In this document: positions 30,226 to 62,159 of the stretch, piece by piece
How positions within the stretch are numbered: the first letter of the stretch is position 1
Layout of the letters: the number at the start of each line of letters is the position of its first letter
Virus record (IMG/VR): IMGVR_UViG_3300042375_000779
Origin: an uncultured virus (IMG/VR IMGVR_UViG_3300042375_000779)
Taxonomy: Duplodnaviria; Heunggongvirae; Uroviricota; Caudoviricetes
DNA: 64,000 bases
Reading direction: 5' to 3' (one strand)
Notes under the pieces: model-generated
Seen by the model: the letters and a program-made list of their open reading frames with translations, nothing else
The model's database searches: none
Told to the model about the DNA's origin: nothing
Position numbers and translations under genes: made by a program

Positions 30226-30417
30226 ATGTTATATATTAAAGTAGACAGTAATAAGGGAATCGAGGGAGCTCTAAAGCTGTATAAAAACAAGGTACGTAAT
30301 ACCAAACAAATTCAAGAGTTAAGAGAAAGACAAGAATTTGTTAAACCCTCCGTTGTAAAAAGAACTCAACGTTTAAAGGCGACGTATATTCAACAAATTA
30401 AAAATGGTCTTGATTAA
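30226..30417 (+). CDS. rpsU: Ribosomal protein bS21 (phage-encoded)
   Basis: IEGALKLYKNKV...ELRERQEFVKPSVVKR...KATYIQ matches Bacteroidota bS21. Confidence 0.9.
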   Translation: MLYIKVDSNKGIEGALKLYKNKVRNTKQIQELRERQEFVKPSVVKRTQRLKATYIQQIKNGLD

Positions 30418-43102: not shown

Positions 43103-43534
43103 ATGAATATGGAGGACAAAGAATATACTGGTGACTTAATATTATTAAGAGGATTACCTGGAAGTGGCAAATCATCGTTAGGTGATATAATTCTACACTG
43201 TCCAGGGTCTAATACCCCCGATGTACTATCTGCGGATAATTTCTTTATGGATGATAAAGGAAATTATAATTTTGATGCAACTAAATTAAAACAAGCACAT
43301 AACGATTGTCAACAAAAATGTGCCGAAAGAATGAAATTAGAAATTTCTAGAATTGTTATTGCAAATACTTTCACCGAAAAATGGGAAATGGACACATACT
43401 ATCAAATGGCGGAAAGATACAAATACAGAGTACATACTGTTATTGTAGAAAATAGACACGAAAGTAAAAACGTCCACAGTGTTCCAGACGAAAAATTGGA
43501 ACAAATGAAAAATAGATTTGAAATTAAACTCTAA
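43103..43534 (+). CDS. P-loop polynucleotide kinase-like protein (AAA_33/N4BP2-like)
   Basis: LLRGLPGSGKS, SADNFF, AHNDC, IANTF, NVHSVP. Confidence 0.85.
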   Translation: MNMEDKEYTGDLILLRGLPGSGKSSLGDIILHCPGSNTPDVLSADNFFMDDKGNYNFDATKLKQAHNDCQQKCAERMKLEISRIVIANTFTEKWEMDTYYQMAERYKYRVHTVIVENRHESKNVHSVPDEKLEQMKNRFEIKL

Positions 43535-43611
43535 AATGAGTCAATTTATTAGTTCGTTTATTAATACTGTTCACCCAAACCAAAAAAGAAACAAACCTTT
43601 AATAAAGAGTT

Positions 43612-44817
43612 GTGTTAGAAAAATTAGAAAAATATTACGCAGATGGTTTGTTAATAAAACAAACTCACCCAACTAAAGATTTAACTATTTGGAATTATTC
43701 CCAAAAAGTTCAATATGAAAAACTATGGGATGACATTACTATGCAGTGTCGTGGATTGGTTACCGATTCAAAAGGTCAAATAGTTGCGAGACCATTTAAA
43801 AAATTCTTTAACTTAGAAGAAATGGATTCACCACCTAGTGGTGAATTTAAAGTTTATGAGAAAATGGATGGATCGTTAGGTATACTTTTTTATTATGAAG
43901 AAGAATTAACCGACGAAAAAAGATATAACATATGGTTTAATAACAACTATGAAACTGGTATGGAAAGGTTCTTTGATTCAAACAATTTACCTGATTATGA
44001 TAACCCATACTATGAACCAACCCCAAAAACAAAAGGTGATTGGGTTTTTGCTTCGAGAGGATCGTTCACATCAGAACAAGCGATTAAAGGTGCTGAAATT
44101 TTAAAAAAGTATAATATAGATTCTTTACATCCTGGATACACATATCTATTTGAAATAATATATCCAGAAAATAGAATAGTTGTTAATTACGGCCCCGAAG
44201 AAAAATTAATCTTACTTGGTATTGTTCATACTATGATTGATGATTTTGAAATGCCATTAGAACATAGTGATGGTCTAATTCGTGGGTGCGGGTTTGAACT
44301 TGTTAAATCATATAATTTAGGTGATGATATTGAATCACTAAAAAATAATATATCAAACGACAATGAAGGATATGTGTTAAGATTTAACACTAAACCAATT
44401 AGTAGAATCAAAATTAAGGGAGAGGAATATGTTAGGTTACATAGAATTATTACAAATATATCAAATAAAGATATATGGGAATATCTGAAAGATAATAAAC
44501 CATTTGATGAATTACTAGAAAAAGTTCCAGATGAATTTAATGAGTGGGTAAAAACCACCGTTAGAGATTTAAGATATGGATGTTTTCAATTAAGAGAACG
44601 AGCAGGTAAATTACACGATGGTTTTAGATATGGTAAATTTAATGACAAGGACTCAGAACCATCTAAAAAAGAATTTGCTGAATTTGCAATGAAACAAGAA
44701 GAAATTTTAAGACCGATACTATTTTCAATGTGGGATAAAAATTATTCCAAAGTAGACGAAATAATCTGGAAATCTGTTAAACCAAAATATTCAAAACCAT
44801 TTAAGAATGAACAATAA
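43612..44817 (+). CDS. RNA ligase (T4 Rnl1-like)
   Basis: CRGLV...RPFKKFFN, EKMDGSLG (motif I), SRGSF, FEII, EGYV, KIK. Confidence 0.9.
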   Translation: MLEKLEKYYADGLLIKQTHPTKDLTIWNYSQKVQYEKLWDDITMQCRGLVTDSKGQIVARPFKKFFNLEEMDSPPSGEFKVYEKMDGSLGILFYYEEELTDEKRYNIWFNNNYETGMERFFDSNNLPDYDNPYYEPTPKTKGDWVFASRGSFTSEQAIKGAEILKKYNIDSLHPGYTYLFEIIYPENRIVVNYGPEEKLILLGIVHTMIDDFEMPLEHSDGLIRGCGFELVKSYNLGDDIESLKNNISNDNEGYVLRFNTKPISRIKIKGEEYVRLHRIITNISNKDIWEYLKDNKPFDELLEKVPDEFNEWVKTTVRDLRYGCFQLRERAGKLHDGFRYGKFNDKDSEPSKKEFAEFAMKQEEILRPILFSMWDKNYSKVDEIIWKSVKPKYSKPFKNEQ

Positions 44818-45283
44818 AATTAACATATATCTAGACGACGTAAGGACCCCATTAGAAGATGGTTGGATAGTTGCCAGGGACTACTATCAGTTTGTATCTT
44901 TAATTGAAACACACGGATTAGATAACGTTGGGAGGATATCTTTGGATCACGACTTAGGTGAGAGTGCAATGATTGAATACTATAATAACGTAAAAGACAA
45001 TTACAAACTCAATTACGAAAACATAGAAGAAAAAACTGGATATGATTGTTGTAAATTTTTAGTCAATCTTAGTATGGACATTAACATTCCTTTACCTCCA
45101 ATATACGTACATTCAGCAAACCCAATTGGTAGTCATAATATGATGGGTTATATTAACAATTATTTGAAGAATTGTAAGTTAACTGAAAGTTGTGGTAGAA
45201 ATGAAATACCACATAGAATTGAGGAGGTCTTTATGTTGAGTCCGGAGGCACGAGAGGCGAGGTGGAAAAGAATTAAAAAATAA
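44807..45283 (+). CDS. Cyclic-phosphate-processing receiver-like domain protein
   Basis: IYLDDVR, ISLDHDLG, TGYD, VHSANPIG; overlaps the ligase stop. Confidence 0.8.
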   Translation: MNNKINIYLDDVRTPLEDGWIVARDYYQFVSLIETHGLDNVGRISLDHDLGESAMIEYYNNVKDNYKLNYENIEEKTGYDCCKFLVNLSMDINIPLPPIYVHSANPIGSHNMMGYINNYLKNCKLTESCGRNEIPHRIEEVFMLSPEAREARWKRIKK

Positions 45284-57376: not shown

Positions 57377-57496
57377 ATGGCTAGAACATCGAGAAGAGTG
57401 GCAAAAAGGGCTAGTAAAGCTTTAAGTAGTAAGAAATCGAGTAGAACTACGAAAACTCTTGCTGGTTCGGCTTTAAGACAAAGGAGAAGAAAATAG
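57377..57496 (+). CDS. 39-aa highly basic peptide (not in the ORF track)
   Basis: MARTSRRVAKRASKALSSKKSSRTTKTLAGSALRQRRRK*. Confidence 0.55.
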   Translation: MARTSRRVAKRASKALSSKKSSRTTKTLAGSALRQRRRK

Positions 57497-57869
57497 TATA
57501 TTGGTTGATTGGGATTTAACGGGGCTAGCAAATAAGCGAGAAACGCCAATCATAAAAACAGATGTCCACTCCCCCATCTTCTGTTTTCCAAAAAGATAAT
57601 CAGGTGACGACGGTGGTGTGACCCCACTGTCTATAAATCCCAAAAAACTGTCTTGATTCGCGGTATCAGAGCGGTGAGGGTAGAGTTACTATAAGTCGGG
57701 AGTAATTACCCAATGACGAAAATGTAACCACAGACATAGGGATATGTTTGTTATGATGTACGAACGGGTGCGAAAAACCTGTAATTTTTTTGAGACTAAC
57801 TCAACGAGGACTTTGTCAACCAGAGCAGTGACTCGGATGGTGCAATTTAAGTGAGTTAGAATCAATTTT

Positions 57870-57943
57870 GGATTGGTAGTTCAGTTGGTTAGAATGCCTG
57901 CCTGTCACGCAGGAGGTCGCGAGTTCGAGTCTCGTCCAGTCCG
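57870..57943 (+). tRNA. tRNA-Asp(GTC)
   Basis: GGATTGG/CCAGTCC; CCTGC-CTGTCAC-GCAGG; G73. Confidence 0.93.
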
Positions 57944-58153
57944 CAATGAGTAAGAAGTACTCAGTAAGTTTGGTAACGTTCTTTCAAGATGTTATGGTTG
58001 TCTCCTACCACGGCCTTAAGAGGGGGTCTCGGAATATGGGGGTAACAATCCCACCGAGTATGTTTGACTTTTATGTGCGGGTAAGACCGTCTCGTGTTTT
58101 CAATACGAAAACAGAAGAAAAATCCACTCACTGGGACTTCAGGTGGGACAATT

Positions 58154-58239: not shown

Positions 58240-58476
58240 CAAAGAATTAACTAAGATACTGTAAAACCAGTAGGTGGTGATTCCAGATTTATCTGTGAAC
58301 CATTTAAACCCTGATAGCAATGTTAGTTCTTAATTAATCACAAATAAAAATGTGAGTTATAGTAAAGTAGCCAATTATAAACCAACATAAAGCTGTTGGA
58401 TACAGACGGAGTAATTAACCAGAGTATAGTGCAACAATTGTGATATTATGACAAATACCCATTTGAGTGATTACTT

Positions 58477-60102: not shown

Positions 60103-60237
60103 CTATTTAAAGTATGGGTCTTTGATGGAAGACCGCAAGAAGAATAGATGTTTTTCATCCATCAAAAATCAATAGTGCTGACTGCAACGGAGACACAAGA
60201 CAGAAGTGAAGGAACTGTCCCTATTGATTATTTAAAT

Positions 60238-60385
60238 TGTAGTGTGACGAAACTGGCAAACGTGCCCTCCTGTCTCGGGGGCGGTGACAAAGAAATGGGT
60301 AAGTAATATGGGGTAGACCACCAGCCGGCCGGCATAGTGTTACTTACTGAATCTCACTTTGGTGGTTCGAGTCCATCCACTACAG
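60238..60385 (+). ncRNA. tRNA-like RNA (GTC anticodon) with a 79-nt variable arm
   Basis: Acceptor TGTAGTG/CACTACA+G, D arm ACG..CGT, CCCTC-CTGTCTC-GGGGG, T arm GGTGG-TTCGAGT-CCATC. Confidence 0.75.
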
Positions 60386-61289: not shown

Positions 61290-62086
61290 TTGGCCGCCTA
61301 TGGTCAATAAAATAAACCACGAAAGTGGGATAAAGTGATCTGGTTTGGTTAAATCAGGTTGCGGTTTCAGCAATGGAACTCGAGTAGGCAAACAGAATAT
61401 CGTTGAACCTTAAGTACTGAGGGTAACACTGTAGGGAAAGTGGTTCGATGATCAAGCAATCCGAGTTGTTTGGTTGAGGTGGGAACACCAATAAGAATAA
61501 TCTGTAGAGTTAGTTTACAAGAAGTAGGATCTCCAATCTTACAATTGTGTGACTCAATATGATGGGAATCTTAAAACCGAAAGGTATGGTGAAGTACGAG
61601 TGGTGTCGTTATCATCCTTAATTAAACCCTACCAAGGGTTTGGTTTTGAAGGGGTCCAAAAATATGGTAGCAGGGATGTTACAGAGAGTAGTTTAGTATC
61701 GAGTTGTTCAAAAGATAACTTGGCTGGCAGACGAGCCACTACTTTCCAAATTCGGAACCACAATCAATTGTTAATATGGTTTAACAACTTAAAAACAAGG
61801 AAAAGTGCTCGTCAGTCGTTGGAGACAGGTGACTACACAGTCGAGAGGGGTTCTCGGCCACAAAGGGTCCAAACCCAATGTGATTTTTAAGAAAGTTCTC
61901 TAAGTTCGCAAGACTTAGTCGGGGTGGCAACCTCGAAGAGTAATGAGTATTAAAAGAGTATCTAACGACTTAAGGATTGGTTAATCTAATTGACCGTCGC
62001 TGATTGGTACTACTCAAAAGGTAGTGGATAAGAGAAGAAAAGATAATGTCTCTAAAGTCAATCGTTAAATGGTGTAATCTCAGCCC
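61290..62086 (+). ncRNA. Large structured ncRNA (~800 nt), GOLLD-like
   Basis: GC-richer, lacks a credible ORF, has many GNRA/short hairpins. Preceded by TATCTTTG and boxA, followed by a terminator, and adjacent to phage tRNAs. Confidence 0.7.
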
Positions 62087-62159
62087 TTTTATTTTCTTTG
62101 TTTAATAAAACAAAGTGGTGGAATCGAAACGTTTTAAAACCGTTTGGCCCAAAAAGATT

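Follow-up and report, generated by a model that had tools for sequence, protein, structure and literature searches.

A tRNA-like RNA family with a giant variable arm in Bacteroidota and jumbo phages, and its possible role as an asparagine carrier

We analyzed a 64,000-nt stretch of an uncultured virus (IMG/VR record IMGVR_UViG_3300042375_000779; hereafter the window), which represents a jumbo phage of the T4-like kind and encodes capsid, portal, terminase, PolB and RNA ligase. Because a bS21 gene lies inside its capsid-portal-terminase block, we place this phage with the bS21 lake phages of PMC9723584, which that paper predicts to infect Bacteroidetes and which have one CRISPR link, to Flavobacterium; the Flavobacterium species listed in the supplement of PMC4206432 is without gatCAB. 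At 43103-45283, genes for an AAA_33 kinase-like protein, a T4-type RNA ligase (43612-44817) and a cyclic-phosphate-processing receiver domain follow in a row and likely form a tRNA repair module. The locus of interest lies near the end of the window, downstream of an ordinary tRNA-Asp with anticodon GUC, which a preliminary description made from the letters alone had already placed at 57870 and which we confirmed (Table 1).

Table 1. Coordinates of the tRNA-like RNA, its parts and features of its surroundings in the window.
Feature	Position	Strand	Remarks
bS21 gene inside the capsid-portal-terminase block	30226..30417	+	Context
Phage tRNA-Asn, G1-C72	56993..57065	+	Context; Table 1 of PMC1635274
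Ordinary tRNA-Asp(GUC), G1-C72, tight T stem (-11.2)	57870..57944	+	Context
Whole tRNA-like RNA gene	60238..60385	+	148 nt; 60386 encodes C74, and CA is presumably a later addition
Acceptor 5' strand, with U1-A72 (GatCAB determinant, PMC1635274), G2-C71, U3-A70	60238..60244	+	Pairs with 60378-60384
Leu-type D arm, with A15 and GG-C-A-N-A	60247..60263	+	3-bp stem 60247-49/60261-63
Anticodon arm	60265..60281	+	Stem 60265-69/60277-81; loop CU-GUC-UC; GUC 60272-74, U37, C38
Giant variable arm, 79 nt	60282..60360	+	Covariation; Leu-type register
Arm base helix 60283-87/60354-58, then 2-bp helix and asymmetric A-rich internal loop	within 60282..60360	+	
Arm long helix 60298-309/60337-48; U48 at 60360	within 60282..60360	+	
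Apical GG-UWGA-CC-A-C element, conserved, weakly paired	60310..60322	+	Missing in short bacterial variants
Perfect 10-nt palindrome, phage-specific; proposed homodimerisation site	60324..60333	+	Palindrome counts, phage vs bacterial copies
T arm, weak predicted EF-Tu binding (G-C, G-U, U-A: -8.1 kcal/mol)	60361..60377	+	Table 2 of PMC3239215
Discriminator G73 and encoded C74	60385..60386	+	
GOLLD RNA	61684..62086	+	Rfam match, 312 bits

The 148-nt cloverleaf with a 79-nt variable arm noted earlier was confirmed on the plus strand at 60238-60385: reading the coordinates from the sequence, the acceptor, D, anticodon and T arms pair as claimed. Its anticodon GUC and G73 are indeed Asp-like, position 37 is a pyrimidine (U37), and the suggested Leu/Ser-type D arm resolves into a Leu-type body with a 3-bp D stem and A15-U48. 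The extra domain at 60282-60360 is present with its helices; what had been called a GC-rich apex is more exactly a perfect 10-nt palindrome behind a conserved GG-UWGA-CC-A-C element. The structural account thus held, although U1-A72, a key feature, was absent from it. The acceptor branch is of the 7/5 kind, with a 7-bp acceptor, and not 8/4, 9/3 or 8/5; an 8-bp acceptor was ruled out because the base preceding U1 can be T, C or A. We likewise rejected contacts between the anticodon loop and the arm, in which GUC would pair with GAC or the loop with the A-rich strand, as no consistent covariation was visible by eye. ARAGORN, a tRNA finder proposed earlier as a check, found 11 tRNAs in the window and made no call at 60238-60385; Rfam gave no match for the element even at E values up to 5, and the window RNA folded alone was no better than shuffles (z -0.54). 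Since both programs miss the element and its single-sequence fold is unsupported, the reality of the RNA rests on its homologs.

Four pattern scans of viral contigs returned 31, at least 120, at least 120 and at least 120 loci, and a scan of prokaryote genomes returned at least 120. While 44 of 511 loci (truncated, false hits or variants) were left unparsed, we parsed at least 130 distinct phage copies and at least 109 distinct chromosomal copies from Bacteroidota. All 80 listed prokaryote loci belong to this phylum, mostly to Chitinophagales and Cytophagales, with cultured strains of Chitinophaga, Dyadobacter, Spirosoma and Arcicella among the carriers. To avoid circularity, each feature was counted from a scan that left that feature free. 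Among the matches listed from the anticodon-free scan, GUC and G73 were each found in 97/97, C38 and a pyrimidine at position 37 each in 95/97, and U33 in just 75/97. Among those listed from the scan free in acceptor and arm, U1-A72 as well as G73 with C74 occurred in 92/92, and G2-C71 and a GACCA motif in the arm each in 91/92; here, pairs 3-70 and 4-69 vary while U1-A72 is invariant. A15-U48 and the D loop GG-C-A-N-A, with C or U as first base, were shared by 239 of the 239 copies among the matches listed, and the Leu-type arm register by 236. The length of the D loop is Asp-like by Leu numbering and Asn-like if the invariant A is A21. Arms span 72-104 nt in the family, and some bacterial copies are short-armed.

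A homolog search with covariation analysis of the insert had been proposed as a check, and it showed that the arm structure is conserved. In an alignment of 56 diverse copies out of 98 representatives, 24 of 38 pairs changed on both sides and 96% of cells pair, with 0 of 500 shuffles as good. The three arm stems are strongly supported (both-side changes in 3/5, 2/2 and 6/8 pairs), and covariation is weak in the apical hairpin. The RNA is thus an undescribed, widespread and unannotated family without an Rfam match. Among the papers listed in searches of the openly accessible literature, no title or opening abstract describes it, and BLAST against cultured phages returned just short T-arm matches. 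In four of four lake or estuary metatranscriptomes, the element is covered by RNA contigs from relatives; one contig spans it with the arm intact, the spanning piece carrying 19 differences. Such contigs show presence in RNA libraries, not ends, strand or level, and uncovered bins prove nothing.

We compared these features with the signals read by AspRS, GatCAB and EF-Tu. All five strong Asp determinants named in PMC9976931 (G73, G34, U35, C36 and C38) are kept in the family; the same source gives U1-A72 as the GatCAB determinant and says that G1-C72 aids AspRS, a point against charging of an RNA with U1-A72. Measured against an elongator tRNA-Asp, the RNA has GUC, C38, G73 and G2-C71, carries U1-A72 in place of G1-C72, and is without the tight T stem, the short variable loop and the purine at position 37. 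On the side of GatCAB, U1-A72 is joined by the finding of GatB in every carrier genome. PMC1635274 reports that GatCAB is indifferent to the anticodon, that an engineered tRNA-Asp with U1-A72 and without U20A is amidated 2-fold below tRNA-Asn, and that a D loop of tRNA-Asp length costs 7- to 120-fold in amidation (120-fold with U20A kept); PMC2811023 locates the GatB tail near the D loop and the variable loop. Of all these signals, only the length of the D loop does not clearly fit a role as an Asn carrier; it counts against amidation, except in the case that the invariant A serves as A21. EF-Tu affinities were estimated using Table 2 of PMC3239215 for 212 of the 239 parsed copies among the matches listed, with 27 bulged stems left unscored. 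All 212 fall at -8.0 to -9.7 kcal/mol and none at or below -10.7, compared to -11.0 for the Asp class, while seven ordinary phage tRNA-Asp range from -10.3 to -11.2; the window RNA scores -8.1 and the window's ordinary tRNA-Asp -11.2. Most bacterial copies (82/103 among the matches listed) score -9.4, which equals the tRNA-Asn class mean, and by this model an Asn-loaded RNA could bind EF-Tu. Judged by its sequence features, the RNA would be read as Asp by the synthetase and as Asn-type by GatCAB, and would be a poor EF-Tu ligand when carrying Asp.

This combination sets the family apart from known systems. With tRNA-dependent Asn synthesis by non-discriminating (ND) AspRS, tRNA-Asn and GatCAB (PMC1635274, PMC2330236 and PMC4206432), it shares U1-A72, GatCAB, weak EF-Tu binding of the Asp form and the lack of AsnA. 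It differs in having an Asp anticodon, a 72-104-nt arm and AsnRS present, and it is proposed to yield free Asn instead of an Asn-tRNA for decoding; because the anticodon is of the Asp type, a discriminating AspRS suffices. The Staphylococcus non-proteinogenic tRNA-Gly (PMC9976931) likewise keeps its synthetase identity and has lost EF-Tu determinants, but is of normal size, carries Gly as a peptidoglycan donor and involves neither amidation nor linkage to a regulator. Allo-tRNAs and SelC* tRNA-Cys (PMC5389517, the main text of which leaves Bacteroidetes unmentioned) also occur in bacteria and phages and have a long variable arm, G73 and sometimes GUC, yet their acceptor branch is 8/4 or 9/3, their D arm is Sec-like and they come with many different anticodons, whereas our RNA is 7/5, Leu-type and nearly always GUC. 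Bacterial tRNA-Leu, a class II tRNA, has the same A15-U48, 3-bp D stem, GG-N-A-N-A loop and arm register, but the family departs from it in G73 (instead of A73), GUC and an arm about five times longer. The rule that tells Leu-type from Ser-type arm registers was compared with tRNA-Ser and tRNA-Leu of the window itself; tRNA-Ser shares G73 and a long arm, and the family is without its G1-C72 and Ser-type register. The bacterial Y RNA YrlA (PMC4201824) is another tRNA mimic of bacteria and phages, but its genes adjoin Ro60, within 4 kb, and we found no TROVE/Ro60 among 63 window proteins or 25 neighbor families and no Rfam match. The RNA thus belongs to none of elongator tRNA-Asp, tRNA-Leu, tRNA-Ser, allo-tRNAs and Y RNAs.

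The bacterial copies have a recurrent neighbor. In 69 of the 80 loci with 5-kb flanks among the matches listed, the closest gene on the upstream side runs divergently and belongs to a single family; among the other 11, 5 have no upstream ORF in the contig, and the next commonest neighbor family reaches 23/80. The best NCBIfam match of this neighbor is AsnC (E 2e-47, 161 bits, below the curated cut-off of 227). In E. coli, asnC is divergent from asnA and AsnC regulates asnA; in the RNA-free genome G110, the asnC-like gene is divergent from asnB. The motif TAnnTTTG, a Bacteroidetes promoter element, lies upstream of 50/104 bacterial vs 4/130 phage loci (raw counts among the matches listed).

We then surveyed 141 Bacteroidia genomes using a covariance model (R1), with a strong match defined as 85 bits or more over 106-212 nt; about 22 candidates were scored per genome, so that absence means none among those scored and divergent copies may be missed. 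The RNA was found in 25 genomes, with scores well separated from those of ordinary tRNAs; 11 of the 25 have short arms without the apical element. All 25 carriers possess GatB, AsnRS (3 found on recheck) and an AsnC-like gene, which adjoins the RNA in 22, and GatA was present in five of five tested. AsnA, E. coli-type AsnB and archaeal-type ND-AspRS were found in none of them. The background in the 141 genomes is GatB 105, AsnA 5, E. coli-type AsnB 17, GlnRS 53, AsnC-like 40 and archaeal-type ND-AspRS 1 (below cut-off); these tallies include G229 (RNA-negative, GatB-positive, GlnRS-negative), on which no conclusion hangs. GlnRS-bearing genomes offer the sharpest test because GatCAB is not needed for Gln there: among these 53, GatB occurs in 13/13 carriers vs 5/40 non-carriers (Fisher p 1e-8, uncorrected for kinship). 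Of the 18 genomes with both GlnRS and GatB, 13 have the RNA and four have a GatB-AspRS fusion, while G262 keeps both genes and showed neither RNA nor fusion. The fusion (L702:3176-6493 in G220; also G186, G249 and G276) spans about 1105-1120 aa, supplies a second AspRS and sits behind gatA and a gatC-sized ORF; all four genomes are without the RNA, and from its sequence it may act as a covalent transamidosome. In a sample of the phylum, the RNA was present in 16 of 151 genomes, of which 10 were new, and all 16 lie within the 126 GatB-positive ones; asnC adjoins it in just 3 of 9 new loci.

In PDB alignments, one position of the anticodon domain is His in the Asp/Asn ligase of P. aeruginosa and Leu in the Asp-specific enzyme of T. 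thermophilus and the enzyme of E. coli, a difference presumably diagnostic of non-discriminating vs discriminating AspRS. None of the 125 main AspRSs read (139 found, 128 fetched) has this His, including those of 24 carriers read out of 25, and it is present in both of the fused copies read; a single residue predicts discrimination only weakly. According to PMC4206432, single AspRSs can be non-discriminating, and its supplement gives U1-A72 in host tRNA-Asn, so the ordinary tRNA-Asn route may operate as well. In addition, long genes of the AsnB family, a possible source of Asn, occur in 21 of the 25 carriers; TIGR01536 is unable to tell true AsnB from other amidotransferases. Other routes or auxotrophy are common, because 96 of 116 RNA-free genomes likewise have neither AsnA nor E. 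coli-type AsnB. On a weak AspRS tree (125 genomes, 129 columns), the RNA changes state 15 times, and just 1-4 independent contrasts had support, none of them opposite and none significant in this underpowered comparison; the co-occurrence of RNA and GatB is thus phylogenetically not proven. A control with AsnRS-negative genomes failed, since the three rechecked proved to be split matches to intact AsnRS. The RNA family itself, like its association with asnC and GatCAB, is well supported.

Phage copies show features of their own. Among the matches listed, an apical palindrome of 6 nt or more occurs in 118/129 phage copies (27 expected from shuffles) vs 2/108 bacterial copies (13 expected). Because 33 different palindromes occur among the phage copies listed, self-complementarity rather than sequence is selected, and the palindrome probably serves homodimerisation; the purpose of dimers is speculation. 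A cofold dimer test did not discriminate (108/130 phage vs 66/109 bacterial arms), and the palindrome count is used alone. An extra D-loop hairpin is present in 65/130 phage vs 2/109 bacterial copies among the matches listed. In many phage copies (L032, L036, L040, L054 and others), its loop UGUCUC repeats the anticodon-loop sequence, and other such hairpins are palindromic; the UGUCUC hairpin is a possible second bait for synthetase or nuclease. By a crude alignment score, the closest bacterial copies to that of the window among the matches listed are from Arcicella. Three near-complete phage records hold one RNA copy each. GatB was absent from 3/3 such records and a class IIb synthetase from 4/4, so AspRS and GatCAB must be the host's. 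The RNA was not found in the nearest record to the window (G001, 19% complete). With its G1-C72, the window tRNA-Asn should be poorly amidated by GatCAB and would therefore depend on AsnRS and on free Asn. Asn is just modestly enriched in the window proteome (6.6% vs 5.4%), and Asp equally so. Among tRNA-Asn near phage copies, 1/4 has U1-A72, and that locus is a false search match; a 7-base pattern for phage tRNA-Asn was uninformative.

Taken together, structure, conservation, gene context and co-occurrence make it reasonably probable that the RNA is a non-decoding carrier, which is charged with Asp, amidated to Asn and then relieved of its Asn. Every reaction step here is inferred, the release step above all. 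In this scheme, the host's single, discriminating-type AspRS would read GUC, C38 and G73 and load Asp, and the weak T stem would hold Asp-RNA away from EF-Tu. GatCAB would recognise U1-A72 and amidate Asp to Asn, the giant arm and odd anticodon loop would bar the product from ribosomes, and Asn freed by spontaneous or assisted hydrolysis could be used by AsnRS. An AsnC-type regulator might tune transcription of the RNA, as AsnC does for asnA in E. coli. Phages would have acquired the RNA from Bacteroidota hosts to raise Asn supply in infection, and the palindrome may pair two phage RNAs, plausibly both engaging dimeric AspRS. The widest form of this proposal has, in our view, slightly better than even chances: a tRNA-derived cofactor, with AspRS and GatCAB, would replace asparagine synthetase at the asnC locus across Bacteroidia, its giant arm blocking decoding and perhaps promoting amino acid release, and jumbo phages would carry self-dimerising versions as an RNA auxiliary metabolic gene. 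The earlier suggestion of a synthetase ligand pointed in the right direction; the link to asparagine metabolism was not part of it.

Several other readings share part of this evidence. The RNA might be an AsnC-controlled ligand or scaffold that titrates AspRS and/or GatCAB, or joins them for tRNA-Asn, without Asn turnover. The identity elements and asnC context fit this equally, the large conserved arm with its invariant internal loop could be a protein site, and the phage palindrome suits high-avidity binding; we still regard it as unlikely, since an intact acceptor end, G73, C74 and an anti-EF-Tu T stem matter mostly if the RNA is aminoacylated, and the lack of AsnA and E. coli-type AsnB in 25/25 carriers fits a supply role. 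A non-ribosomal donor of Asp, Asn or Ser to a transferase acting on envelope, lipid or protein N-terminus is a weaker candidate. The weak EF-Tu stem is typical of the non-proteinogenic class, SerRS could also read the long arm and G73, together with G2-C71 and U3-A70, and Leu-to-Ser switches follow A73G (PMC9976931). Yet no transferase recurs nearby, the asnC-like family alone being shared (69/80, next 23/80 among the matches listed), SerRS needs neither GUC nor C38, bacterial tRNA-Ser keeps G1-C72, and the register is Leu-type in 236/239 copies listed. Deliberate mistranslation, with Asn-loaded RNA decoding GAC/GAU and placing Asn at Asp codons, would find EF-Tu affinity in the -9.4 of most bacterial copies and U33 in most copies; we rate it as very improbable, because an Asp-to-Asn change across the proteome is costly and because the 72-104-nt arm, pyrimidine 37 and frequent C33/A33 are unfavorable to decoding.

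For the phage copies only, a repurposed decoy could be envisaged, the dimers of which absorb an anti-phage nuclease that attacks tRNA-Asp or tie up the AspRS of the host. Separate selection is indeed indicated by the phage-specific palindromes and D-loop hairpins, the phage has its own tRNA-Asp and RNA ligase, and its host may be without GatCAB. However, phage copies hold U1-A72, G73 and the weak T stem as strictly as bacterial ones, none of which a decoy needs, and we consider this improbable. As an origin, the pure phage decoy and the cargo scaffold offered in the preliminary description are not supported, because Bacteroidota have the RNA gene in their chromosomes, next to an asnC-like regulator, and the arm is just short in some bacterial copies. 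The same description had raised an unusual tRNA-Asp intron removed by the phage ligase, and a T4-type RNA ligase is indeed encoded in the window. This idea is largely refuted, and we give it next to no credence: cutting out 60282-60360 would leave no variable loop (positions 44-48) and would remove U48, the partner of A15 in 239/239 copies listed. Moreover, the arm shows covariation, bacteria have the gene in their chromosomes, and no joint skipping the arm occurs in the four metatranscriptome contig sets, which show presence and not absence.

If the carrier reading is correct, an RNA gene stands in for a metabolic enzyme and opens a third route to free asparagine, in which the specificity switch lies in a non-coding RNA and not in the synthetase. 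It would address the puzzle, described in PMC4206432, of why bacteria with AsnRS and GlnRS, Bacteroidetes included, keep GatCAB. Because annotation tools do not see the gene, metabolic reconstructions would miscall Asn auxotrophy in Chitinophagales and Cytophagales, and the phage copy would be an auxiliary metabolic gene made of RNA. Whether or not the mechanism is right, the family provides a natural tRNA scaffold with arms up to about 100 nt, widespread and available in cultured strains.

Several variants and neighboring features were observed along the way. In one genome (G138; L536 / L566), a tandem pair of short-armed copies lies next to asnC and has the anticodon UUC rather than GUC, possibly as a Glu-to-Gln variant or through decay, and five short variants have G37. 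Tandem or second copies also occur in several other bacteria (L396, L413, L441, L504, L518, L524 and L531), some with a damaged 5' half. A 76-nt relative (L539, genome G234) has U1-A72, G73 and anticodon AUC but no arm, and its genome has AsnA. The AsnRSs of G196:C19, G241:C1 and G268:C4 are 507-524 aa long, with the TIGR00457 match split in two, which suggests an internal insertion. In the window, long non-coding stretches between tRNA genes (57400-57860, 57950-58150, 58240-58470 and 60110-60230) have no Rfam match at gathering score and may hold more structured RNAs. Finally, contigs of relatives cover the GOLLD region at about 61294-62100 with depths of 1e2-1e5 in four metatranscriptomes, starting about 390 nt before the Rfam match.
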